A DNA stretch of 64,000 nt from Clostridia bacterium (GTDB lineage Bacteria; Bacillota; Clostridia; TANB77; CAG-465): the NCBI GenBank assembly GCA_029256705.1, contig JAQSXK010000002.1:55542-119541 (forward strand), given 5' to 3'. The notes beneath the pieces are model-generated. The model was not told where the DNA came from. It did no database searches and worked only from the letters and a program-made list of their open reading frames with translations. The position numbers were made by a program, and so were the translations under genes. This document shows, one piece after another, positions 11,819-53,626 of this stretch. Every line of letters starts with the position of its first letter. Within the stretch, counting starts at the first letter, position 1.

Positions 11819-11908
11819 CTCTTTTCTGTATAGTTAATTATACACTAAATTCTATAAAAAATCAATAAAAATATTGCATTTATAGAAAAATAAGGATATA
11901 ATATATGC

Positions 11909-12814
11909 ATGAAAAATTTAATTGTAAAAATAGAAGAAAAAAATAAAAAAATATTAGTTTCAAAATACTTAACAAGTATATTTAAGAATGTACCTTACTC
12001 TGCTATATGTAAGGCTCTTAGAAATAAAGATATTCGTGTTAATAATAGTAAAATCTCAAGTGATATATTAGTGCAAAATAATGATATTTTAGATGTATAT
12101 ATCCAAGATAATATATTATTTAATTTACCAAAAGAAATAAAGTATTATTATAATGATGAGAATATTTTAATTGCTTTTAAACCACAAGGAATACTATCTA
12201 ATAATGAAGATTTAAGTTCTAAACTTTTTGAACCAACATTTGAAGAATTGGTAATAAAGGATTTAAATGATAATAACATTAAAATATGTCATAGATTAGA
12301 TAGAAATACTGGTGGACTTGTTATATTTACTAAAAATGAAAATGCATATGTAGAAATGTTAGATGCATTTAAAGATAATAAGATTCACAAAGAATATATA
12401 GCTTATGTTGCAAATAGCAACTTTGCCAAATCACATAATGTACTTGAAGCATATATATTACAAGATAAAAAAGCTGGGTTTTCGAAAATATCTCAAACAA
12501 ATGTTAAATACTCTGAAAAAATAACAACAGAATTTACTGTACTAGAAAAAAACATAAAACAAGATTATGCAAAATTAAGTGTTATTCTTCACACAGGGAA
12601 AACACATCAAATAAGAGCACACTTAGCAAGTATAAATCACCCAATAATAGGTGATAGTAAATATGGAAAAAACGATGTAAATAAGAAATTCAAAAAAAAT
12701 AGACAACTCTTATTTGCAAACAAATACACATTTAGTTTTGATAATGAAAGTATGTTGAAATACTTAAACAATAAAATAATACAATTAGAAAAAGAAGTAA
12801 CTGAATTTAAATAA
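11909..12814 (+). CDS. RluA-family 23S rRNA pseudouridine synthase (S4 domain plus catalytic domain)
   Basis: HRLDRNTGGLVIFTKN catalytic Asp motif; N-terminal S4-like RNA-binding region; HTGKTHQIRAHL motif. Confidence 0.85.
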   Translation: MKNLIVKIEEKNKKILVSKYLTSIFKNVPYSAICKALRNKDIRVNNSKISSDILVQNNDILDVYIQDNILFNLPKEIKYYYNDENILIAFKPQGILSNNEDLSSKLFEPTFEELVIKDLNDNNIKICHRLDRNTGGLVIFTKNENAYVEMLDAFKDNKIHKEYIAYVANSNFAKSHNVLEAYILQDKKAGFSKISQTNVKYSEKITTEFTVLEKNIKQDYAKLSVILHTGKTHQIRAHLASINHPIIGDSKYGKNDVNKKFKKNRQLLFANKYTFSFDNESMLKYLNNKIIQLEKEVTEFK

Positions 12815-32502: not shown

Positions 32503-32590
32503 TTATTACACTTCCTCCTTGACTTTAGATTAAATATATAGTAATATATTTAATATATAATATGAAAATATTAAACTATAGGTGAATATA

Positions 32591-33235
32591 ATGAGTAGAA
32601 ACTTACAAACAAAAAAAGAAATTAATGAAATAATTGAAATATTGAAACAAGCATATCCAGAAGCTAAATGTAGATTAAATTATGAATCTCCTCTACAACT
32701 TGTAGTCGCACTAATACTAGCTGCGCAATGTACTGATGATATGGTTAATAAGGTAGTTCCTATCTTGTTTAATAAATATCCTAGCGCTAAGTGTTTAGCA
32801 AATGCTGATTTATCTGATATAGAAAAAATAGTAAGACCTTGCGGATTTTACTTAACAAAGGCAAAAAATATCCAACTTACTGCAAGAAGTATATTTGAAA
32901 ATTATAACAATACTATTCCTGACAGTATGGAAGAATTAACTAAACTATATGGAATAGGAAGAAAAAGTTCAAATATAATTCTTCAAGAATGCTATAACAA
33001 AACCGAAGGAATTGCTGTAGATACACATGTATCTAGAACATCAAAAAGAATAGGTTTTACCAGAAGTGATATACCACTGAAGCAAGAACAAGAGTTAATA
33101 AAGAAAGTAGATAAAAAATATTTTAATAAATTAAATCACATATTAGTGTTTCATGGTAGAGCAATATGCATCTCTCGTAAGCCTAAATGTGACATATGTC
33201 CTATTGAAGATAGATGCAAAAAAGTGGGTATTTAA
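32591..33235 (+). CDS. nth: endonuclease III (DNA glycosylase/AP lyase)
   Basis: HhH-GPD fold (LYGIGRKSSNII), catalytic Lys region, C-terminal [4Fe-4S] loop CISRKPKCDICPIEDRC; ATG at 32591 preceded by AGGTGA. Confidence 0.9.
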   Translation: MSRNLQTKKEINEIIEILKQAYPEAKCRLNYESPLQLVVALILAAQCTDDMVNKVVPILFNKYPSAKCLANADLSDIEKIVRPCGFYLTKAKNIQLTARSIFENYNNTIPDSMEELTKLYGIGRKSSNIILQECYNKTEGIAVDTHVSRTSKRIGFTRSDIPLKQEQELIKKVDKKYFNKLNHILVFHGRAICISRKPKCDICPIEDRCKKVGI

Positions 33236-33247
33236 CCCACTTTTTAT
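33218..33247. terminator. bidirectional terminator between nth and the histidine kinase
   Basis: AAAAAAGTGGGT-attta-ACCCACTTTTT overlapping the nth stop codon. Confidence 0.55.
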
Positions 33248-33265: not shown

Positions 33266-35077
33266 CTATTTGATTTCAGTTTTATCTTCATTATTAATTT
33301 CTTGAGCAACTGAAACTTTACTTTCTTCTTTCGCTCTATCTAATAATATATAAAATGTAGTACCTTGTCCCTCAGAAGATTCAAATGTTATCTCCCCTGA
33401 AAATTCACCTTTAATAACTGAATATGCAAGATAAAGTCCAAGCCCTGTACCTTTTGTTCCCTTCGTAGTTAATATATTTTTAAATACAAATTCTTTTATA
33501 TTTTCTGGTATTCCACCAGCGTAATCTCTTACTTGAACCATAATCTTATTACTTGGTGCTTTAGTTACAGAAACCTCTATCTTACCACTTTTTTCGTTAT
33601 ATGCTTGAATAGCATTTAAAAACAAGTTAGTAAACACTTGACCTAGTTTTGTAGGATCTCCATAAACACTCAAATCGTCTTCAATGTTTACACTTAATTC
33701 GCATCTGCTTTTTTGAAATTCATTATATGCTATAATTCTTACATCTTCTATGACTTCGCTTATTTTGAAGTTAAATTTCTGATCACTACCTAAATTTCTT
33801 ATCTGATTTCGCATACTGTTAACTATTTTAATGATTTTCTCAGTACAATTACTCATTCTAAATAATAATTCTTTTTCAGTTTCATCCCTAGGTATATACA
33901 TTTCTTGAAGCATTTGTATGCCTGTTTTTATAGCTGAAATAGGAGTATTTATATCATGAGCAACGCCTCCAGCAAGTTCACCTATGGAAACAAGTTGTCC
34001 CTGCTTCACTATAACCTCTTGCTTATCCTCTATTTCTTGTATATCTTTTTTATGTTGGGTTATATCTCTAAACAGTAGTAATGTACCTATATATTCTGAA
34101 TTACTCTTAATTTTTATTGGATGTATATCAACTTCAAAATATTTATTAAACGTTTTATTAATTATGTGATATTCCTCTTTGATTATACTTCCCATCTTTC
34201 TAGATTCTTTTATGTGAATTTTTAAATCTTTCAAATCTAGCAAATTACTCTTTTCAATCATTTCAAATAAATTATCTTCCCTATTTGCTTTTAAAATTTC
34301 TTTAAATATATTTTCAAACGTTAAATTTTTATCCACTATAGTTCCATCATTTGATATTACAATAAATGCATCAGACATTGTATCTATTACTGTTCTAAAG
34401 GCTATTGGTGTTATATTAAGAGCCTTATATTTAAATATTGCGATAGCATAGCAAATAGTTGCAAACATAAATAATACTGGAGTAACATATATTGTCATCG
34501 GTATTATTTTAAAAGTTCCTAAAACATTTGCAAAGAGTGGAACCATACTTCCCAATACAATTAATGCAGTTTGATTAGAAAAGAATCCTGAATTACGAAT
34601 TGACGCATAAATTAATGTAAACAATGCAAAAGTCAATAATACATATGAATATACTGAATGTACTATAAAGTATGGACCTACAACTCCATCACTTATATTA
34701 ATTGAATATTTAACAAAGAATAAATGATGAATATCATTCGTCCATAATACGATTAATGTAACGGTAGGTACTATCAACATCCATAAGATTTTTTTTAAAT
34801 CAAACTCTGGTTTTAAATAAGTCGAAGCCAAGGCCATAAATGCGACTGGTAAATACACCCCCGCCACATATGTTATATAGTCAAAATATATTTGTCCAAC
34901 TCCATTAAATAAAATTTGCAGTATTAGTGCTAATAGATATATTGCTAATAAAGTATATATTAAAATAAACTCTCTATGCAACTTAGTATTATTTTTTCTT
35001 TTTGCTAAATCAATCATCAATCCAAAGCAAGATGTTAATGTAATTAATAATAATAGCAATGTTGTATTAAATATCAT
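33266..35077 (-). CDS. orphan sensor histidine kinase (N-terminal 7TM sensor domain, PAS, HisKA, HATPase_c)
   Basis: Seven hydrophobic helices, then a PAS-like region, H-box GGVAHDINTPISAIKTG, N-box LFLNAIQA, G-boxes GTGLGLYL and GQGTTFYI; AGGAGG RBS 8 nt after the NRPS stop; no response regulator within the window. Confidence 0.85.
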   Translation of the reverse strand: MIFNTTLLLLLITLTSCFGLMIDLAKRKNNTKLHREFILIYTLLAIYLLALILQILFNGVGQIYFDYITYVAGVYLPVAFMALASTYLKPEFDLKKILWMLIVPTVTLIVLWTNDIHHLFFVKYSINISDGVVGPYFIVHSVYSYVLLTFALFTLIYASIRNSGFFSNQTALIVLGSMVPLFANVLGTFKIIPMTIYVTPVLFMFATICYAIAIFKYKALNITPIAFRTVIDTMSDAFIVISNDGTIVDKNLTFENIFKEILKANREDNLFEMIEKSNLLDLKDLKIHIKESRKMGSIIKEEYHIINKTFNKYFEVDIHPIKIKSNSEYIGTLLLFRDITQHKKDIQEIEDKQEVIVKQGQLVSIGELAGGVAHDINTPISAIKTGIQMLQEMYIPRDETEKELLFRMSNCTEKIIKIVNSMRNQIRNLGSDQKFNFKISEVIEDVRIIAYNEFQKSRCELSVNIEDDLSVYGDPTKLGQVFTNLFLNAIQAYNEKSGKIEVSVTKAPSNKIMVQVRDYAGGIPENIKEFVFKNILTTKGTKGTGLGLYLAYSVIKGEFSGEITFESSEGQGTTFYILLDRAKEESKVSVAQEINNEDKTEIK

Positions 35078-35095
35078 ATTTATACCTCCTAATAG

Positions 35096-38000
35096 TTATA
35101 AAAATTTTACTTCTTTTAAATATTCTATATATTTTAAAATATAATTTACGTCGATATTTGGCCATTCAAAATTCAATTCTTTCAAGAAATCTTTAGTAAA
35201 TGTTGATAATACTTTAATATTGGTCTTATATTCTAGTTCCTTATTTTTATTGAGATCTGCAATTATTCCAGATATATCTTCAGATGATTCATTAGAGTTT
35301 AAATACTTTTCCATTAATAAAGTCATATCTTGCTTACTTATAATTTTAATGTCTATTCCAATATTTTTTAATGTGTTTATTACATATCTCATCTTTGCAT
35401 GCTTATCATTAAATAGATGGAATACACTATACTCTCTTGATGTCCTAGCTAACTTCATAACAGCATCAGATGCAAAATCTATTGGTGTAAATTCCATATA
35501 AAAATCCAACAAGTTTTCTGGCATCACTTTTAAATTAATTAATGTTTTTATTCTATTTGCAAATGCATTTTCTTCAACATTTGGTTGGAATTTTCCATCT
35601 GTATATCTTCCAGTTAAATTTCCCATTCTCATTATTTTGGCATTTAATCTATTCTCAGATATCTCGTCAAGTATATATTTATCTGCTATATACTTAGTAT
35701 ATACATATACATTATCTAAGTTTTGCTCTATATATAATTTAGTTTCATCGAATTCTTTCTCTATTCCATCATTCTTTTGTTCAACTTGACCACCTTCAAT
35801 TATATTTCCAGATGTACTTAACGTTGAAATCTGAATTAACCTTTTATCGTATTTTTCACAAAAATTTACAATATTTTTAGTACCCTTTACATTTATTTTA
35901 TAGAATAATTCTAAATTTCCATAATGTTTTACATGTGCTGCAGAATTTATTACTGTATCAATATTTTTACTCAACTTAATATTAGCCTCTTCATCTGCAA
36001 TTATATTTTCATTAGTAATATCGCCTTCAACAACATGTATCCTATTATTAAGTTCATTTTCATATTTATCACCAAAGAAGAAACTCAATATTTCTTTTAT
36101 TCTTGATTCTGGATCTTCACCATTTTTACTTCTTATCAAGCAATATATTTTTCCTTTTTCATTTCTCATAAAATTATCTAATATATGTGCACCTAAAAAT
36201 CCTGTAACGCCTGCAAGAAGTACATTACCTACAGATTGTTCAGTTGGTTTATAATTTTCTAATTTATTATTCTCTAAAATTTTATTTATCTTACTATAAT
36301 CATAATCTGCAATTTCTCCGGATATTGACTCTTTTTTATTTATATTATTTAGCATATCTCCAAGTTCTCTAATAGTAGGATATTTAAAGATATCACCATA
36401 AATAATTTTTATATCCTTTGAAAGCAATTTCATAACCAAACTAGTAACTAGTAATGAATCGCCCCCTATTTCAAAAAAGTTATCATTCATGCCAATGTTT
36501 TCGACATTTAATACTTCTTTAAAACTCTCCGCCAACTCAAAATATATACCATCCAATTTTTCTGTATTACTTATAACATTTAATTTGATATCAGGTAACT
36601 TTGACTTATCTACTTTACCATTTATATTAAGTGGTAAAGTTTCTAATCTCATAAAGTAATTTGGTATCATATATAGAGGTAATTTATTTTTCAAAAAGAT
36701 TCTCAACTTTTGTTCATCTATTAAATTATTACTTGTATAATAACAAACAATACTCTTAACGTTATTTATTTCGTTAACTTGCAAATAGCATTCATTTATT
36801 TCTTTATACTTTAAAACACCCAATTGTATCTCTTCTAGTTCAATCCTAAATCCTCTTATCTTTACTTGCATATCTATCCTGCCTAAGAATTCAATATTTT
36901 TAGTATAACTTAAATATACTAAATCACCAGTCTTATATAAAATCTGATTATTCATTTTTATAAACTTTTCATTAGTCAGTTTTTCTTTATTTAAATATCC
37001 ATTAGAAACTCCATCTCCACCCACTAATAATTCGCCCGGAACATTAATTGGAGATAATAAATTACATTTATCATAGATATAGCATGTAGTATTACTTATT
37101 GGTATTCCTATAGGTATTTTGAATTCAAATCTTTTCTCTATTTTATAATAAGTCGAGAAGCTTGTATTTTCAGTTGGACCATATACACTTAATAAATCTA
37201 TATTTTTATTATTATCTAAAACTAAATTTATATGTTTTGTAGATAGAACTTCACCACCAACAAGTAATGTTCTCACATTATCAAAAATATTTTTATCATA
37301 TTCAACTATATTATTAAACAGTGCTGTTGTCAAAAAAATTACTGTTATATTATTATCAATTAGATACTGTTTTAATATCATTGGATTCAATAAATCGTCT
37401 TTTTTAATTAAATATAAAGTTAACCCATTAAGTAATGCACCAAAACACTCAAATGTAGCTGCGTCAAATGACATTGAACCTGTTTGCAATATTCTATCCG
37501 TATTCTTAAAATCTATATAATTAGTATTTTTTACTAATCTTACAACACTCTTATGCCTTACCATTACACCCTTTGGTTCACCAGTTGTTCCAGAAGTATA
37601 CATTATATAAGCTAAATCATCTATACTACTCTTAATATTTAAGTTTTTATTATCATAATTTTTAAATATATCAAATTTTGAGAATGTACTTTTATTTACT
37701 AAAACTTTAATATTAGAGTCTCTAAAAATATATTCTATTCTTTCTTTAGGATAACTCAGATCCATTGGAAGGTATATTGCTCCACATTTTAAAATTCCCA
37801 ATATTGCTATCATCATCTCAATTGATTTATCCAACATTATAGCTACAACATTACCATTTCTAACATGATTTTCAATTAAGTAATGTGCTAATTGGTTTGC
37901 TTTTTCATTTAGATCTATGTAAGTTAAACTATTATTTTCACATACTACCGCTATTTCATTTGGAGTTAAATCAACCTGTTCTTCAAATAACTGAATTATA

Positions 38001-41000
38001 GTTTTATCTTTAGGATAATTAGTATGTGTGTTATTAAAAGAATTTAAAATAAATTCCTTTTCTTCTTCTGATATTATTTCTACATCTCTTATATTAGCCT
38101 CTTTATTTTTAGTAATAAATTCTAATGCATTTAAAACGTGCATAGAAAATCTTTCGATAGTTTCATCCTTATATAGATTTGTATCATATTCTAAATTTAA
38201 ATCTATTTTTTTATCAGTTGGATATACCTCAAATGTTAAATCAAATTTAGAAGTATTAGTTTTTATTTCATCTATCTCTAATTTTGTATTTTCTAGATAT
38301 ATATCAGGTTTACCTGTATTTTGAAAAACATACATAATATTGAAGATTGGATTTCTTGAACTATCTCTCTTGATTTTTAGATTTTTAACCATTTCTTCGT
38401 ATGTATACGAATTATTTTCTAAAGTTTCTAACATTAAATTCTGAGTTTTTTGTAAGTATTCTTTAAATGATTCATTTAAATCTATTTTTACTCTATAAGG
38501 TAAAGATTTAACGAACATTCCTATTGTATTTAATTCTTGTATATGTCTTCTACCAAATGTTGCTATACCTATAATTATATCCTCGCTATAAGTATATTTA
38601 GATAACACAAAATTAAATATTGCTAAGAACACATTATTCAATGTAACATTATTTTCTTTTGCATATTCAACCAATTTTTCTTTTAATTCTGAATTTATTA
38701 TTTTTTTTATTTTTTTCCCTTCAAAAGACTTGTTACTTTTTCTAGGATAATCAGTATTAATTGAAATTACAGGCAATTCATCACTCAATTTATCTAAAAA
38801 ATATTTCTTAGATTTTGTATACTTACTTTTATCATTTTCTATTTGTATACATTGCCCAAATGTTAATATTTCATTTTTTATTTGTTTATCATTATATACA
38901 TCAATTATATCTTCTATAAGTATATTAATCGACTGCCCATCAAATATTATATGATGAAAATCCATTAAAATATTTATTTTGTCCTCTACTAAATAAAATT
39001 CAATTCTAAACAATCTTCCATTAAGTAAGTCAAACGGTTTTACGAAATTATCTTTTACTTTAATATATTCAATATTACTTAATCTAACAGCATTAATTTT
39101 TATTTTCTGTTTATCAATTTTATAATATAATTTATTTTCTTTCATATCTATTTTAGAAAACAATAATGAATGATTTAAAACACTAGTCTCTATACTTTTT
39201 ATTAATTTATCAACATTTATATTATTATTAAGTTTTATTTCTAAAGGTGTATTGTAGATAATACTTTCTGTATTATAAGAATAATTATTGAATATTGATA
39301 TTTGAGCAGGAGTTAGTAAATATTCCTCCTTTTCAGTAGGTACATTAAATATTTCAGTACTCTGTGAATACACACTTTTTTCTCTTATTCTTTTCTCTAA
39401 CATTTCAATGTTTTCACATTCATAAATATCTGTATAGGTAAAATCTATCTTATATTCATCTGATATTTCCATAGACAGTCTTATTGCGCATAAAGAATCA
39501 ATATTTTTTTTATACGAAGAATCATAATAATCAATGTTATATTTGGATAATATTTTAGATAATTTTTTATCTTTAACATTAATTTTATTAGCCTCGGTTT
39601 TATTATCATTATCTTCTTCGTCTACTAGTTCTATTAATTTTTTTCTATCTGCTTTTCCATTCATATTAAAAGGAATTTCCTCTAAAACGAACAACTCACT
39701 TGGCAACATATATTTTGGTAATGATAAACTTAATTTATCTATAATTTCTTTTTTATTATTAAATTTATCATTTATTGTTACATAACATACAATTTTATCA
39801 ATATTATTAATTTTTTTAACAACAACAGCACTTGACGTTATACAATCAATCATATTAATAGCACTTTCAATTTCTTCTATCTCAATACGTAATCCATTAA
39901 TTTTAATTTGATTATCTATTCTTCTACTATACTCTAAATCTCCATCAAAGTTATATAATACTTCATCACCAGTCTTATATACTTTCATACCAAATAATAT
40001 ATCAAATTTACTTGATACTGCATTATCAACATTTATATATCCTAATCCAACTCCAGCACCTGCTATAGCTAATTCTCCATTAACACCCATCGGTAAAATT
40101 CTATTTTTTCTATCTATTATAAATGATTTAGTATTTGGAATTGGCTTTCCAATGTTAACTTCATCATAACTTTTGATTAATTTCATTGACGAGCATACTG
40201 TAGTTTCTGTTGGGCCATAGCCATTAAATATATCTATATTTTTATCTTGCAGAATATTTAATACATTTTTATTGAATACTTCACCTGCTATTGTCAATCT
40301 CTTTATTGAATTTAGCTTCTCAATGTTATCTTCTTTTTGTAGTATTAAATTCAATTTTGTTGGTGTTATAAACATAACTTCTATAGAATACTTTTCTATA
40401 GTATCTACAATTTTATATGGAGAATTTGATTCTTCATCATTTAAAAATACTAATTTAATTCCGAATAGCAAAGGCGTTATAGTTTCTATAACAAACATAT
40501 CAAAAAAGTATTTTGTAATAGATAATGCTACTTTGCAATAATCAAGTTTTTTTACATCATTAGCAGCAAACATTAAATTAATTAAATTGTTATGTGAAAT
40601 CATAACTCCTTTAGGTTTACCTGTTGTTCCAGAAGTATAAATTACATATACTAAATCTTCTCCTTTATTTACTTTTGTAAGATTATTACTTAAATAATTA
40701 GAGTAATTAAAATTATTTATATTTATGGTTTCAACTTTATTATTAATATTATCTATATTTGTAATTATCAACTTTGAACTGCTATTTTCTAAAATATATT
40801 TTATTCTATCGATTGGGAATTCTGGATCTATAGGTAAATATGCAGCACCAGACTTTAAAATCCCCAATATTGAAATAATCATTTCAAATGATCTTTTAAA
40901 TATTAATGATACGATATCCCCAGATTTTACTTTTTTTTCTTCTCTTAAAAAATGTGCGAGACTATTAGATTTTTCATTTAATTCTAGATATGTCATTTGT

Positions 41001-42430
41001 TTATTTTCAAAAATAATTGCTACATCATTTGGATGTTTTTTTACCTGTTGCTCAAATAAATCAATAACAGTCATATTAGTAGGATATTTTGTGTCAGTAT
41101 TATTAAATTCACATAATATTTTATCTTCTTCATCTTCACTCATTACACGAATGTTTTCAACATTAATATCTAAATCTTTAATTGCATTTTTCATAATGGC
41201 AATGAGTCTTGTATTTAAATATTCAATCTCAATTTCATCAAATAGATCTACTAAATAATCATAGTGCAAATTAAAAATACCAGTATTGTCTATATCCATA
41301 ATGTGAATCTCTAAATCATCTTGTATATTACCTGAAAATAACCATTCGGTAGAAAAATCTTCATTATCTAAAATATTTGATCTTGTGTTTTGATAAGATA
41401 ATACAAAATTATATATTTTGCCCTTCACATCTGTTGTGTTATGTATATATTCTAATGTTTTTTCAATTGGATATTTTTGATGTCTAAATAGTGACATAGT
41501 ATCATTACCTAATTGTTTAACTAAATCTATAAATTTTATATTTTCTTCTACTTTTATGCGTGTTGGCATAGTGGAAATAAACATTCCCAGCATCTGTTTT
41601 TCTTTAAAATTTGATCTATTTAACACAGGGGTACCTATTATAAAATCATTTTCATTTTTTATTCTATAAATATATGTGGCAAGCGCACCTAAAAACAACG
41701 TATATGCAGATATTTTATTAACTTTTATATATTCTACTATTTTATCATTAGTTTCTTTATCTAACGTTATAGAATATCTATTAGCTCTTGTATTTAATTT
41801 TTTCTTAGAAGTTTTTAATGAAACAGGTGCTTTTATATCTTTTAAATATTCTCTCCAAAACTGTTCATCTTTCAAATATTTTTCTGAAGAAGTATATTCT
41901 TTTTCTGATTCTATAAAATCTATATACGATGGTTTATTAGCTTCTTCATGTATATTATTTATAGCATTATCATACATTTTTAAGAGTTGATTTGCTACTT
42001 GTCCAAATGTCCATGCATCGGAAATAATATGATGTAACTTAACAAATACACATCCATCATTATTATTATATCTAACTATTTTAATATCATATAATTTATT
42101 ATTTAAAAAATCAAAAGGAGTATTAGAATTTATTTCAAAAAAATTTTCAATATCTTCTTGGCTTTTTTTACTCATGTCAAAATATTCTACATCTTCATAT
42201 ATATAATCTTCAAAAATTTGATACACAGAATTATCCTCTTCAAAAATCTTAATTCTTAGAGCATCATTTAATTCAATAAGTTTATTTACTATTTTATTAC
42301 ATATTTTTTCATCAAATTTAGATTTGATTTGAAGCAATCCAGCTATAGTATTCATAGAAGTATTTTTATTAAATTTCTCTACTAAATATATGTTATTCTC
42401 AGGAAAAGTCAATTCATATCTATTATTCAT
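35096..42430 (-). CDS. bimodular non-ribosomal peptide synthetase with terminal reductase: C-A-T-C-A-T-R
   Basis: C1 HHIISDAWTFG (about 42030); A1 core YTSGTTGKPKG (about 40610), NGYGPTETT, YKTGDEV; T1 NIDSL (about 39500); C2 HHIIFDGQS (about 38950); A2 YTSGTTGEPKGVMV (about 37575), YGPTENT, YKTGDLV; T2 GGDSLLVTSL (about 36455); R domain GxxGxxG VLLAGVTGFLGAHIL (about 36200) and YTKYIADK. Start placed at the second ATG (42430), which has a GAGGGG RBS; the upstream in-frame ATG at 42445 is also possible. Confidence 0.95.
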   Translation of the reverse strand: MNNRYELTFPENNIYLVEKFNKNTSMNTIAGLLQIKSKFDEKICNKIVNKLIELNDALRIKIFEEDNSVYQIFEDYIYEDVEYFDMSKKSQEDIENFFEINSNTPFDFLNNKLYDIKIVRYNNNDGCVFVKLHHIISDAWTFGQVANQLLKMYDNAINNIHEEANKPSYIDFIESEKEYTSSEKYLKDEQFWREYLKDIKAPVSLKTSKKKLNTRANRYSITLDKETNDKIVEYIKVNKISAYTLFLGALATYIYRIKNENDFIIGTPVLNRSNFKEKQMLGMFISTMPTRIKVEENIKFIDLVKQLGNDTMSLFRHQKYPIEKTLEYIHNTTDVKGKIYNFVLSYQNTRSNILDNEDFSTEWLFSGNIQDDLEIHIMDIDNTGIFNLHYDYLVDLFDEIEIEYLNTRLIAIMKNAIKDLDINVENIRVMSEDEEDKILCEFNNTDTKYPTNMTVIDLFEQQVKKHPNDVAIIFENKQMTYLELNEKSNSLAHFLREEKKVKSGDIVSLIFKRSFEMIISILGILKSGAAYLPIDPEFPIDRIKYILENSSSKLIITNIDNINNKVETININNFNYSNYLSNNLTKVNKGEDLVYVIYTSGTTGKPKGVMISHNNLINLMFAANDVKKLDYCKVALSITKYFFDMFVIETITPLLFGIKLVFLNDEESNSPYKIVDTIEKYSIEVMFITPTKLNLILQKEDNIEKLNSIKRLTIAGEVFNKNVLNILQDKNIDIFNGYGPTETTVCSSMKLIKSYDEVNIGKPIPNTKSFIIDRKNRILPMGVNGELAIAGAGVGLGYINVDNAVSSKFDILFGMKVYKTGDEVLYNFDGDLEYSRRIDNQIKINGLRIEIEEIESAINMIDCITSSAVVVKKINNIDKIVCYVTINDKFNNKKEIIDKLSLSLPKYMLPSELFVLEEIPFNMNGKADRKKLIELVDEEDNDNKTEANKINVKDKKLSKILSKYNIDYYDSSYKKNIDSLCAIRLSMEISDEYKIDFTYTDIYECENIEMLEKRIREKSVYSQSTEIFNVPTEKEEYLLTPAQISIFNNYSYNTESIIYNTPLEIKLNNNINVDKLIKSIETSVLNHSLLFSKIDMKENKLYYKIDKQKIKINAVRLSNIEYIKVKDNFVKPFDLLNGRLFRIEFYLVEDKINILMDFHHIIFDGQSINILIEDIIDVYNDKQIKNEILTFGQCIQIENDKSKYTKSKKYFLDKLSDELPVISINTDYPRKSNKSFEGKKIKKIINSELKEKLVEYAKENNVTLNNVFLAIFNFVLSKYTYSEDIIIGIATFGRRHIQELNTIGMFVKSLPYRVKIDLNESFKEYLQKTQNLMLETLENNSYTYEEMVKNLKIKRDSSRNPIFNIMYVFQNTGKPDIYLENTKLEIDEIKTNTSKFDLTFEVYPTDKKIDLNLEYDTNLYKDETIERFSMHVLNALEFITKNKEANIRDVEIISEEEKEFILNSFNNTHTNYPKDKTIIQLFEEQVDLTPNEIAVVCENNSLTYIDLNEKANQLAHYLIENHVRNGNVVAIMLDKSIEMMIAILGILKCGAIYLPMDLSYPKERIEYIFRDSNIKVLVNKSTFSKFDIFKNYDNKNLNIKSSIDDLAYIMYTSGTTGEPKGVMVRHKSVVRLVKNTNYIDFKNTDRILQTGSMSFDAATFECFGALLNGLTLYLIKKDDLLNPMILKQYLIDNNITVIFLTTALFNNIVEYDKNIFDNVRTLLVGGEVLSTKHINLVLDNNKNIDLLSVYGPTENTSFSTYYKIEKRFEFKIPIGIPISNTTCYIYDKCNLLSPINVPGELLVGGDGVSNGYLNKEKLTNEKFIKMNNQILYKTGDLVYLSYTKNIEFLGRIDMQVKIRGFRIELEEIQLGVLKYKEINECYLQVNEINNVKSIVCYYTSNNLIDEQKLRIFLKNKLPLYMIPNYFMRLETLPLNINGKVDKSKLPDIKLNVISNTEKLDGIYFELAESFKEVLNVENIGMNDNFFEIGGDSLLVTSLVMKLLSKDIKIIYGDIFKYPTIRELGDMLNNINKKESISGEIADYDYSKINKILENNKLENYKPTEQSVGNVLLAGVTGFLGAHILDNFMRNEKGKIYCLIRSKNGEDPESRIKEILSFFFGDKYENELNNRIHVVEGDITNENIIADEEANIKLSKNIDTVINSAAHVKHYGNLELFYKINVKGTKNIVNFCEKYDKRLIQISTLSTSGNIIEGGQVEQKNDGIEKEFDETKLYIEQNLDNVYVYTKYIADKYILDEISENRLNAKIMRMGNLTGRYTDGKFQPNVEENAFANRIKTLINLKVMPENLLDFYMEFTPIDFASDAVMKLARTSREYSVFHLFNDKHAKMRYVINTLKNIGIDIKIISKQDMTLLMEKYLNSNESSEDISGIIADLNKNKELEYKTNIKVLSTFTKDFLKELNFEWPNIDVNYILKYIEYLKEVKFL

Positions 42431-42485
42431 TATATTACCCCTCATTTGTATACAATTATAAAATAATTATATATCAAAAAAATAC

Positions 42486-42530
42486 AAAAAACAACACTTT
42501 TAAATTAATTTATTTAAAAGTGTTGTTTTT
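42486..42530 (-). terminator. rho-independent terminator after divIC (upstream of the NRPS)
   Basis: AAAAACAACACTTTTAAA ... TTTAAAAGTGTTGTTTTT 18-bp perfect inverted repeat. Confidence 0.65.
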
Positions 42531-43816: not shown

Positions 43817-44515
43817 CTAATCTATTTTCATAGATTTTGTAATGAATTTTTTGGATTTTCCAGATAGTTCATTAGATATTTGGCCCGTCACATAAGCTGT
43901 AGCACAAGATGTTCCAGAAGCCTTAATAGTACTTCCATCCAGTAATTTTATATCATATTTTTTATCTTTCACTACTATAACCGCTTTACTAGAAGCATTA
44001 TCTGAAACGGAAACTACACCTTTGTAATTTGCAGGATACGAATAACCCTCGTAATTGTTTATACACGAAGCAACAACAATAACCCCATTATCCAGCGCAT
44101 ATTGTACAGCCTCTTTTAATTTAGGCTTATCTTCCTTTGTTCCAAAACTCATGTTAATAATATCAACATCATTTTCAACACACCAATATATAGATTTTGC
44201 TATATTATCTATGCTAGATACTAAGTTGCTATCCAAAGTAGAAACGTAATATATTTCTGCATTGTTTTTTTGCTTAATTATAGATAAGATAGTATTACCA
44301 TGATTTGTAAGCAAAGGATCCTTTACCATTATCTTATTCACTTTTACGTCATATTTGGATATATATTCATCATCCAATAAACTGTCTATAACGCCAATTT
44401 TAACTACTTTACTTGGTCCATTATGAAACGATAAATAAGCAACATATAAAGCAACCGCATAAAGTGAAATTAACAAAATTACCATTACTAAAAATTCTTT
44501 CCGATTTCTTTTCAT
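43817..44515 (-). CDS. minimal membrane-anchored subtilisin-like serine peptidase (S8)
   Basis: N-terminal TM; catalytic Asp (IGVIDSL), His (TNHGNTILS), oxyanion Asn (IINMSFGT) and Ser (SGTSCATAYVTG) in the S8 order within only 232 aa. Confidence 0.75.
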   Translation of the reverse strand: MKRNRKEFLVMVILLISLYAVALYVAYLSFHNGPSKVVKIGVIDSLLDDEYISKYDVKVNKIMVKDPLLTNHGNTILSIIKQKNNAEIYYVSTLDSNLVSSIDNIAKSIYWCVENDVDIINMSFGTKEDKPKLKEAVQYALDNGVIVVASCINNYEGYSYPANYKGVVSVSDNASSKAVIVVKDKKYDIKLLDGSTIKASGTSCATAYVTGQISNELSGKSKKFITKSMKID

Positions 44516-44529
44516 AAAATACCCGCCTT

Positions 44530-44874
44530 CTATAAATTTATTGTAGGTAATGATTTATCCACACTTTCAACTGTAATAGACTTACCTACTACTCTTGCAT
44601 TACATTCAGGATAATTTTCATTTAAAAATCTTAGTACAACAGATATATCTAGAACTTCTACATTCAAACTTTCCCTTATACAAAGGCATCCCTCATCTTC
44701 TGTACTATCTTCATAGAGCCATTCATGAAATTCCTTAGTTAAAACAGAAATTTCCGGCAAATTTGAATTATTACATTCTATTATTTTAGCATAACAATCA
44801 AAAACTATTGTAATAAACATTAAGTATTCCTCCTTTAAAGAAATATAAATTATTGAGTAGCACCAAACCAACAA
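44530..44874 (-). CDS. small acidic Cys-containing protein, hypothetical (candidate immunity/accessory factor)
   Basis: 114 aa, no TM, six Cys including CLC; sits between the His-rich secreted protein gene and the S8 peptidase gene with small gaps and a 25-bp overlap. Confidence 0.35.
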   Translation of the reverse strand: MLVWCYSIIYISLKEEYLMFITIVFDCYAKIIECNNSNLPEISVLTKEFHEWLYEDSTEDEGCLCIRESLNVEVLDISVVLRFLNENYPECNARVVGKSITVESVDKSLPTINL

Positions 44875-45680
44875 TGTGGTTCGTGATTAGGATTTACAAT
44901 CCATTTTCTTCCACCAGGGTGATAATGAGGATAAAAACCCTCGCCAACATCATGAGCTTTATGGTATATATATTTAGTAGTTGGGACTGTTGCTGCTAAA
45001 GCAGCGGCTTTTGCAGCTTCTCTAGTCGTTGCAAAAACATCCATTCCTGCTATTAATCTTGCTACTGCTGCTTCATAAGTTATTTGCTTATTAATAACAA
45101 CAACTCCACCAGCCAAAGCTGCTGAGTAGTATGGTGAGTTTTTTTTTGTATCTTCCTTTTCCTCTACTTTTTCTTGTACCTTAACATTTACTTTGTTTGC
45201 ATCAATCGTTTTTGCAATTGAGTCAACAGAGTACCATACAGTATAAGTTCCTACAACTGCTACTGCTGCAGCAATTGTTATTTGCGCTGCTTCAATAAGA
45301 GCTGGAGTCCATAGAATTAAAGGAATAGCAAAAGCAAACTGTCCAACAACAACTCCATCATAATTTTGTGGGTCCGTTTGTGCTAAATCAATAACTAAGT
45401 TGTCCCCATACTTTTGAGTAGATAAATCATATGCTATTTCATCCCTGTATAAAGTGTACTTATCAACATCCTTAGCATATTTAACCTTCAAGGTTGTATC
45501 ATCTATAGTATTTATAACTTCAATGTTTCCATTAGCTTTTGTAGTTATAACTAAATTTTCATTGTTATTTATCCGTTGGTATTTGTAATAATAATTTTTA
45601 GCTGTAGGTAAAATAGTTAACACTAGAATAATCGTTAGTAATAATACTGTTAACCGGTAAAACCTTTCACTCATTTTCAT
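44850..45680 (-). CDS. secreted/membrane protein with a hydrophobic helical hairpin and a His-rich C-terminus
   Basis: Signal-anchor MKMSERFYRLTVLLLTIILVLTIL; central hydrophobic segment VVVGQFAFAIPLILWTPALIEAAQITIAAAVAVVG; Ala-rich region; C-terminal HKAHDVGEGFYPHYHPGGRKWIVNPNHEPHCWFG. Confidence 0.4.
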   Translation of the reverse strand: MKMSERFYRLTVLLLTIILVLTILPTAKNYYYKYQRINNNENLVITTKANGNIEVINTIDDTTLKVKYAKDVDKYTLYRDEIAYDLSTQKYGDNLVIDLAQTDPQNYDGVVVGQFAFAIPLILWTPALIEAAQITIAAAVAVVGTYTVWYSVDSIAKTIDANKVNVKVQEKVEEKEDTKKNSPYYSAALAGGVVVINKQITYEAAVARLIAGMDVFATTREAAKAAALAATVPTTKYIYHKAHDVGEGFYPHYHPGGRKWIVNPNHEPHCWFGATQ

Positions 45681-53541: not shown

Positions 53542-53626
53542 GCGAGTATGGCGGAACTGGCAGACGCGCCAGACTTAGAATCTGGTACCAACCGGTGTGG
53601 AGGTTCAAGTCCTCTTACTCGCACCA
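53542..53626 (+). tRNA. tRNA-Leu (anticodon UAG), class II with long variable arm, encoded CCA
   Basis: Acceptor GCGAGTA/TACTCGC, D-arm, anticodon stem CCAGA/TCTGG with loop CTTAGAA (anticodon TAG), long variable arm, T-arm GGTTCAAGTCC, discriminator A plus CCA. Confidence 0.9.

Follow-up and report, generated by a model that had tools for sequence, protein, structure and literature searches.

In the agrBDCA systems of staphylococci and clostridia and in comQXPA of Bacillus, the gene for signal synthesis is co-transcribed with that of a polytopic histidine kinase, the specificity of synthesis and the sensor of the kinase form a hypervariable block, the transmitter is conserved, and the alleles are old. 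CqsA/CqsS, the CAI-1 system of Vibrio, and LqsA/LqsS of Legionella likewise place a synthase gene beside that of a multi-pass kinase that senses the lipophilic product inside the membrane, and the downstream regulator is unlinked. Here we describe a locus in a 64 kb stretch of a Clostridia bacterium genome (contig JAQSXK010000002.1, 26% G+C; hereafter the window), in which the gene of a 603-residue histidine kinase with a seven-transmembrane (7TM) sensor (33266..35077, minus strand) directly follows that of a nonribosomal peptide synthetase (NRPS) of 2449 residues (35096..42445, minus strand). We favour the reading that the two genes encode a signal synthase and its cognate receptor kinase, which would feed a conserved regulator encoded elsewhere in the genome, and we give this reading an even chance of being right.

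Like agr and comQXP, the locus appears to join a variable block, made up of synthesis specificity and kinase sensor, to a constrained transmitter, with old alleles at one site. It differs from them in that the presumed signal is no ribosomal peptide but would be an N-acyl (di)peptide aldehyde of nonribosomal origin, that the sensor is a HisKA_7TM domain followed by PAS and a HisKA-type DHp, unlike the sensors of AgrC and ComP, and that no response regulator is adjacent in this lineage. With CqsA/CqsS and LqsA/LqsS it shares the two-gene synthase/kinase logic and, presumably, an unlinked downstream regulator; however, CqsA and LqsA are pyridoxal phosphate-dependent acyl-CoA transferases, whereas the synthase here is an NRPS with a reductase domain, and CqsS is a hybrid kinase with a receiver, which the present kinase lacks. 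To our knowledge, no pherotype-like allelism at one locus has been described for either pair. Diffusible signal factor signalling in Xanthomonas combines a synthase (RpfF), a sensor kinase (RpfC) and a REC-HD-GYP regulator (RpfG). In Bacillus subtilis the NRPS product surfactin activates the membrane PAS kinase KinC and through it Spo0A, which provides a precedent for a link between a metabolite and sporulation; unlike here, the synthetase and kinase genes are not linked to each other, the kinase is believed to respond indirectly, via potassium leakage, and we know of no co-variation of sensor and synthetase in that system. The closest synthetases are those of gut clostridial dipeptide-aldehyde clusters (BGC0001686, with the product N-octanoyl-Met-Phe-H, and ruminopeptin), which share the order condensation-adenylation-thiolation-condensation-adenylation-thiolation-reductase (C-A-T-C-A-T-R), the starter C domain, the terminal R domain and a low-GC gut Clostridia host, and whose products have been discussed as inhibitors of host proteases. 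In layout, the closest kinases are the orphan Spo0A kinases of clostridia, which have the same 7TM-PAS-HisKA-HATPase architecture, are approximately 600–790 residues long and stand alone, and none of which is described as attached to a biosynthetic gene (PMC11210211). A literature search found no prior account of an NRPS-kinase cassette, of NRPS-linked kinase pherotypes, or of a conserved kinase downstream of a dipeptide-aldehyde NRPS, and a search on HisKA_7TM gave two archaeal surveys only. Co-evolving pairs of synthase and receptor kinase are already known as a kind, and the build from an NRPS and HisKA_7TM appears to be new.

The two genes lie very close together. The stop codon of the NRPS (TAA, 35098-35096) is separated from the start codon of the kinase (ATG, 35077-35075) by an 18-nt junction (35078..35095, minus strand) that contains the Shine-Dalgarno (SD) sequence AGGAGG at 35090-35085, with a 7-nt spacer to the ATG, and a terminator scan detected no terminator-like site between the two genes; this agrees with what the original prediction had read from the same letters. 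Its proposal of a single operon that ends at the hairpin at 33218..33247 also gains support, given that the spacing is conserved in 19 of 22 loci and that terminators stand on both sides. The downstream hairpin is predicted as a bidirectional intrinsic terminator (11-bp stem, dG -18 kcal/mol, z = -5.6) that serves both strands and is shared by the kinase and the end of the convergent nth gene (endonuclease III), while a hairpin after divIC (42487..42530, minus strand; 19-bp stem and T-run), conserved in related loci, isolates the NRPS-kinase unit from the upstream genes yabP, yabQ and divIC. The layout therefore supports one transcription unit between two terminators, and the synthesis gene adjoins the kinase gene as in agr and com, as far as the DNA letters can tell. 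The further claim of translational coupling gained no support. The kinase has a strong SD of its own, and the junction RNA has no significant structure and folds no better than shuffled sequence (z = 0.42), by which coupling through RNA structure from NRPS to kinase was rejected.

The gene pair is widely conserved in related loci, each viewed as the contig 10 kb to either side of the kinase. In a genome scan that yielded 17 loci in metagenome-assembled genomes of Clostridia, with kinases at 33–71% identity, an NRPS ends immediately upstream of the kinase in all 17, and look-ups of six proteins added ten further loci with an NRPS upstream in 10/10. After L023 and L027, which are second places of the same proteins, had been left out, the NRPS lies directly upstream in 25 of 25 non-duplicate loci. 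A metagenome scan gave 53 more, and an NRPS was found upstream in 27 of the 32 that have at least 3 kb of DNA on that side of the kinase. In the 19 of 22 loci with conserved spacing, -14 to +26 nt separate the NRPS stop codon from the kinase ATG, usually with a GGAGG-like SD. Adjacency is kept down to 33% kinase identity and across two unrelated transmitter classes, and the synthetases involved have the architectures C-A-T-R (about 1430–1490 residues), C-A-T-C-T-R (1947 residues) or C-A-T-C-A-T-R (about 2450–2500 residues). The hosts are low-GC Clostridia from the gut of human, rabbit and leopard.

The kinase itself is intact, with the architecture HisKA_7TM-PAS-HisKA-HATPase_c. HisKA_7TM (PF16927) matches residues 10–224 (E 2.4e-35, 122.9 bits against a cut-off of 28.6), HisKA residues 366–423 (E 7e-10) and HATPase_c residues 473–581 (E 5e-20), and the match to PAS_9 is weak and below threshold (21.8 bits against a cut-off of 27). 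The PAS domain is nevertheless confirmed, because the AlphaFold2 model has a PAS fold and Foldseek finds PAS/LOV-histidine kinases. The model, built with 59 homologues, has a mean predicted local distance difference test score of 78, and of 84–94 in the membrane part; it predicts seven helices, a PAS fold at residues 237–338, a DHp hairpin and a catalytic domain. Against the PDB, Foldseek matched PAS/LOV-histidine kinases, 4gcz and 8a7f among them, over approximately 370 aligned columns (E about 1e-18) and found no solved structure covering the 7TM part. Hydropathy also gives seven membrane segments, the distribution of positively charged loops puts the PAS domain on the inner side and the N-terminus on the outer side, and both hydropathy and model indicate that the loops of the 7TM part are mostly very short.

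All parts of the kinase are encoded on the minus strand. The 7TM sensor, which is the hypervariable, NRPS-linked part, comprises residues 1–216 (34430..35077), as judged from HisKA_7TM, hydropathy and the model, and is followed by the cytoplasmic PAS domain (residues 236–341, 34055..34372). The DHp domain (33794..34060), delimited by Pfam and alignment, carries the H-box GELAGGVAHDINTPISAIK and in it the phospho-acceptor H374 (HDINT, within AHDINTPIS; codon 33956-33958), and this H-box is invariant in the 59 homologues. The ATP-binding catalytic domain (HATPase_c, 33335..33775), which is under strong purifying selection, has its N, G1 and G2 boxes (N-box NLFLN, then DYAGG and GTGLG), which are likewise invariant among homologues. 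A gene call at JGI for an identical protein (P0001) starts at M21 and gives 583 residues; we prefer M1 because of the SD, the N-termini of homologues (MI...) and the position of the first transmembrane helix at residues 5–26.

The evidence that carries our reading lies in how sensor and synthetase vary together. L001 is a near-conspecific genome, whose proteins in the flanks are 94–99.6% and whose flanking DNA is 94–99% identical to the window. Its NRPS, in contrast to the C-A-T-C-A-T-R of the window, is a C-A-T-R protein of 1443 residues with a different adenylation code. The two kinases are 10–57% identical over residues 1–200, with an identity of only about 35% for the sensor, and 87–100% identical over residues 205–603, the protein identity of the transmitter being 91–100%. 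Among homologues whose PAS-transmitter parts are 78–93% identical, the sensors fall into at least five types with 35–50% identity to each other, and in every inter-type pair tested the identity jumps at residues 205–211, the end of the seventh helix. The sensor type of the window recurs in P0009/L025 (73–79% identical), which has a different genomic context and a transmitter with only 63% identity, and the L025 NRPS is bimodular (2447 residues) with the same first adenylation code as the window. The yabP-yabQ-divIC neighbourhood is a matter of backbone synteny; L025 has the same type of cassette elsewhere in its genome.

Mantel tests over sets of 12, 19 and 37 loci put this in numbers. When transmitter divergence is controlled for, the sensor correlates with the last A domain and with the R domain of the NRPS (partial Mantel r = 0.61–0.88, p ≤ 8e-4; for the last A domain r = 0.61–0.71, the value of 0.71 having p ≤ 3e-4), whereas the transmitter does not correlate significantly with the A/R domains when the sensor is controlled for (r = -0.09 to 0.25; for the A domain -0.09 to 0.24). 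The transmitter tracks the starter C domain of the NRPS (r = 0.94), and the PAS-transmitter part follows the genomic backbone. In pairs whose transmitters are at least 78% identical, sensor identity amounts to 74–100% for pairs that share their NRPS type (n = 33) and to 36–53% for pairs that do not (n = 13), and sensor clusters drawn at 65% identity or more contain one adenylation code each. A hypervariable block of synthase specificity and sensor thus stands beside a conserved transmitter, and the suggestion of the original prediction that the kinase senses the product may well be correct, being backed by this co-variation.

The alternative that the kinase controls the NRPS or self-protection in response to an external or envelope cue, such as a host protease, membrane stress or nutrients, and acts through an unlinked regulator, seems to us an unlikely one. 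Co-transcription and conserved adjacency are equally expected for a pathway-specific regulator, and HDINT, which fits the HisKA phosphatase motif, would allow bifunctional control. HisKA_7TM is moreover a domain for which no ligand is known (PMC5847659). A sensor of a common cue, however, is not expected to diversify together with A and R domains while its transmitter stays fixed, and no DNA-binding regulator is linked to the kinase in the loci examined, where linked regulators have enzymatic or other outputs of no assigned function.

The alleles also appear to be old, to judge from synonymous (dS) and nonsynonymous (dN) divergence between the window and L001, the sole near-conspecific pair. 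Ten flanking genes other than nth have dS of 0–0.24 and dN of up to 0.026. Within the locus, the starter C domain has dS 0.70–0.94 and dN 0.17–0.21, the reductase domain 1.02 and 0.46, the 7TM sensor 1.38 and 0.54, the PAS domain 1.11 and 0.12, and the DHp and catalytic domains together 0.69 and 0.03. Since these values lie far above those of the flanks, the NRPS-kinase locus is an island of old divergence in a young pair of genomes; its dS (0.7–1.4) equals that between the window and other species, for which flanks and transmitter alike have dS of about 0.5–1.0. The identity of the transmitter proteins is then due to purifying selection (dN/dS about 0.04) and not to recent common ancestry. 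A clean recombination breakpoint at the 7TM/PAS junction was considered and dropped, as transmitter dS is high as well (0.69). Judged from this one pair, the locus thus has more than one old allele inside what is a single lineage at species level, as in agr and com, and at least five sensor types share one backbone. The nth gene (32582-33235; dS 0.32, dN 0.031) has higher dS than the other flanking genes, as if divergence decayed outward from the island.

That gradient bears on another alternative, in which NRPS and kinase are functionally independent, the kinase is an unrelated passenger, and the co-variation reflects an island that was brought in, or kept, as a single stretch of DNA. The DNA of the sensor abuts that of the R domain, and dS is raised locus-wide and decays into nth as for a single block. 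On the other hand, a passenger would hardly account for an adjacency that survives 33% kinase identity, two transmitter classes and different chromosomal contexts, for the conserved spacing, or for a boundary of protein conservation that coincides with the 7TM/PAS junction in all inter-type pairs that were tested, and the low dN/dS of the transmitter shows that the kinase is functional. We regard this explanation as quite improbable. Adjacency, the boundary at a domain junction and the re-association of like sensor and NRPS types on other backbones are suggestive, not decisive, against pure hitch-hiking.

Several points weigh against a pair of synthase and receptor. Co-inheritance could follow from physical linkage alone, because the sensor DNA abuts the 3' end of the NRPS gene. 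Three sensor clusters that are mutually less than 65% identical share a single A-domain code, so that either the A code is not the sole determinant of specificity or part of the pattern is plain lineage drift. Many of the loci are near-duplicates, which inflates the counts of pairs. Some relatives share the sensor family and the transmitter class yet lack an NRPS, namely a single gene in L046 and tandem or triple arrays in L050–L053 and L062, all of them orphans, and the sensor fold is accordingly not exclusive to NRPS products. The literature known to us treats peptide aldehydes of this kind as inhibitors of host proteases and not as signals. Finally, ligand, target and function of the NRPS-kinase pair are all things that we infer.

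Even so, recognition of the NRPS product by the 7TM domain seems to us the most economical account, because spacing, variable block, constrained transmitter and old alleles all match agr and comQXP. In the pathway that we envisage, the NRPS would make an N-acylated dipeptide aldehyde, or a compound derived from one, as its domain content and heterologously characterised clostridial relatives suggest. The lipophilic product would be sensed within the membrane by the seven-helix domain, as the co-variation suggests, and such sensing of a molecule like N-octanoyl-Met-Phe-H is plausible for a domain with mostly very short loops. The signal would pass through PAS to DHp, where the intact motifs would allow autophosphorylation of H374, and the phosphoryl group may then go to a conserved response regulator whose gene lies outside this region. 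The locus would accordingly exist as several ancient pherotype-like alleles in which the specificity and reductase part of the NRPS and the 7TM domain differ together, the transmitter presumably being nearly constant because the same downstream partner must be kept.

Which regulator this could be depends first on the neighbourhood. That no response regulator is encoded nearby had been stated from the letters and holds over the whole 64 kb: phmmer with five receiver queries against open reading frames (ORFs) in six frames gave a best E above 0.3 (controls 1e-17 to 1e-24), and a REC profile hidden Markov model gave a best E of 0.41 (control 4e-42). The window thus has neither a cognate response regulator in the locus, as agr and com do, nor an adjacent REC-HD-GYP, as Rpf does. 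No receiver or regulator was found within about 10 kb in the close relatives of the same transmitter class either, and the kinase is locally an orphan in the window and in every close relative examined.

Alignments of the DHp domain split the kinases into two transmitter classes. Class I comprises the window, L001–L005 and L022–L029 and has the H-box GELAGGVAHDINTPISAIK; class II has the H-box IAHNLKTPIMSI (IAHNLKTPI) and a long DHp insert and is 32–35% identical. A REC-HD-GYP protein of about 350 residues follows the kinase in 9 of 11 class II loci, which is 9 of the 17 genome loci, and these loci would therefore follow the synthase/kinase/regulator logic of Rpf. Unlike these, the clade of the window has no REC-HD-GYP, and the kinases that do have one belong to the other transmitter class. 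Three more distant kinases with class-I-like transmitters (L056, L068 and L069) have a REC protein downstream with a C-terminal domain that resembles a kinase domain lacking the histidine; the sensor of L056 is 7TM-PAS, and L068 and L069 carry another sensor. The regulators of L056 (10738-11760) and L068 (9722-10783) consist of a receiver and a C-terminal domain of about 220 residues without a Pfam hit, which in L068 resembles a pseudokinase output because it has an H-box-like stretch without the histidine (GIAQEMKDPL). An adjacent cognate regulator, named in the original prediction as an observation that would speak against its reading, therefore exists in the wider family, as REC-HD-GYP or REC-pseudokinase, and not in this lineage.

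The original prediction had also proposed a link to Spo0A and sporulation, and this part has fared less well. In its strict form it describes an orphan sporulation kinase that phosphorylates Spo0A in response to a cue unrelated to the NRPS product, with a position that is incidental or ties expression only. The kinase is indeed an orphan here and in all close relatives, sporulation genes are present, with yabP and yabQ adjacent, and a conserved partner with the role of a hub would fit the strong purifying selection seen in the transmitter. The 7TM-PAS-HisKA-HATPase architecture is identical to that listed for CAC0323, CAC0903, CPR1316, CPR1954 and Cbei_0807/0808 (PMC11210211, Table 1), and the NRPS-free tandem orphan arrays of relatives (L053) recall the pair cpr1953-cpr1954. 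This architecture, however, is not predictive of Spo0A kinases, and some clostridial orphan kinases, such as RgaS and CprK, have partners other than Spo0A (PMC11210211). The transmitter is generic and nearer to AtoS, ZraS, ThkA and LvrB than to KinD or KinB: NCBIfam ranks AtoS first (160 bits), then PnpS and ZraS, with KinD at 83 bits, and a PDB search returned ThkA, ZraS, LvrB and FixL before KinB (3d36, 8th), while a PDB search with the DHp domain alone returned ZraS, LvrB and ThkA only, KinB being absent. These searches do not mark the transmitter as specifically like that of sporulation kinases. The NRPS-linked kinases of more distant loci have REC-HD-GYP or REC-pseudokinase proteins as their partners, not Spo0A, and the co-variation of sensor and NRPS would go unexplained if the cue had nothing to do with the product. 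We consider this explanation rather unlikely.

Spo0A as the target of the kinase is a different matter, since it is compatible with product sensing, and we consider it possible, although doubtful. An always-orphan transmitter that is strictly conserved, together with the existence of tandem orphan paralogues, is compatible with a hub of the Spo0A type. In L053 (8899-14310), and also in L051, L052 and L062, two or three HisKA_7TM kinases lie head-to-tail with neither an NRPS nor a regulator nearby, an arrangement reminiscent of cpr1953-cpr1954 and Cbei_0807-0808, which are likewise orphan sporulation kinases in tandem. More tentatively, and in a wider sense than for the single locus, we propose that nonribosomal N-acyl amino- and dipeptide aldehydes may be strain-specific autoinducers of uncultured gut Clostridia, with ancient NRPS/HisKA_7TM pherotypes at one site that share an unlinked regulator, possibly Spo0A, or that act on c-di-GMP turnover in the REC-HD-GYP clade.

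The synthetase is a C-A-T-C-A-T-R protein by Pfam and motifs, with two Condensation, two AMP-binding and two PP-binding domains and a terminal NAD_binding_4 reductase. Its active-site motifs are intact (HHxxxD at residues 138 and 1164, GVTGFLG at residue 2079, Y2247xxxK), and the starter C domain, two A-T modules and terminal R domain of the short-chain dehydrogenase/reductase type (GxTGxxG, YxxxK) are those of clostridial (di)peptide aldehyde synthetases. The mechanical ORF begins at 42445 (MRGNIM...). Translation probably starts at the second ATG instead (42430), which gives 2444 residues, because homologues align only from MNNRYELTFP and because the first ATG overlaps GAGGGG, which could be the SD of that second start. 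The window has the adenylation codes DMIFTAGVC and DAFFLGVSF, whereas the common C-A-T-R alleles have DILQLGVIW. As a lead only, the first resembles an unassigned code, the second one for branched-chain aliphatic residues and the third that for glycine. Single-module C-A-T-R synthetases with DILQLGVIW make up most alleles of the lineage and of human-gut relatives (L001, L024, L026, L031, L035–L049), and, on that presumed glycine code, they would make an N-acyl-glycinal, which a second reduction could turn into an N-acylethanolamine-like lipid. A related Clostridium NRPS yields N-octanoyl-Met-Phe-H (PMC8518294). In L022/L023 (P0070; L022 4158-10001) the NRPS is the 1947-residue C-A-T-C-T-R form, whose second module is without an adenylation domain, and it overlaps the kinase start by one base; the P0070 kinase occurs on 7 contigs, and a Hadza human-gut sample is the source of one.

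Other features of the region touch the operon less directly. A putative sigma-A promoter of the NRPS-kinase operon may lie at 42466..42494 on the minus strand, with a candidate -35 element TTGTTT (42494-42489), a 17-nt spacer and a -10 element TATAAT (42471-42466). Six related loci keep the -10 block tATATAAT, and the site is absent from the promoter-like sites of a generic promoter scan. The divIC hairpin and this putative promoter overlap (42466-42530), the candidate -35 being part of the T-run and 3' arm of that hairpin. At the other end of the operon the stop codon of nth lies inside the shared terminator hairpin. Rfam at gathering threshold found only one tRNA in the whole window (53542-53623), by which a riboswitch or other known RNA near the operon was rejected, and a role in anti-phage defence was rejected as PADLOC gave no hits. 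Upstream of yabP, at 43817-45680, are a subtilisin-like S8 protease (232 residues), whose best NCBIfam match is QhpE-like and below cut-off, and two unannotated ORFs, all conserved in L001, L005, L024, L026 and L029; a protease beside a locus for a peptide aldehyde, a type of protease inhibitor, may or may not be coincidence. L028, with a sensor type C allele, has an extra ORF of 239 residues between kinase and nth (11874-12593), which is absent from the window and has no precomputed Pfam hit.

If the co-variation proves to be linkage only, the kinase would be an ordinary orphan kinase gene that ends a biosynthetic operon. If the favoured reading holds, in which the NRPS product is the ligand of the kinase, the locus would give HisKA_7TM, a widespread sensor domain, its first candidate class of ligands, and the partner regulator of many clostridial orphan 7TM-PAS kinases would become a testable question. 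It would also be an NRPS-based counterpart of the agr and com pherotypes, with several alleles at one site that can be compared directly, and an abundant family of peptide aldehydes of the gut microbiome would then seem to be bacterial signals as well, beside any action on host proteases.

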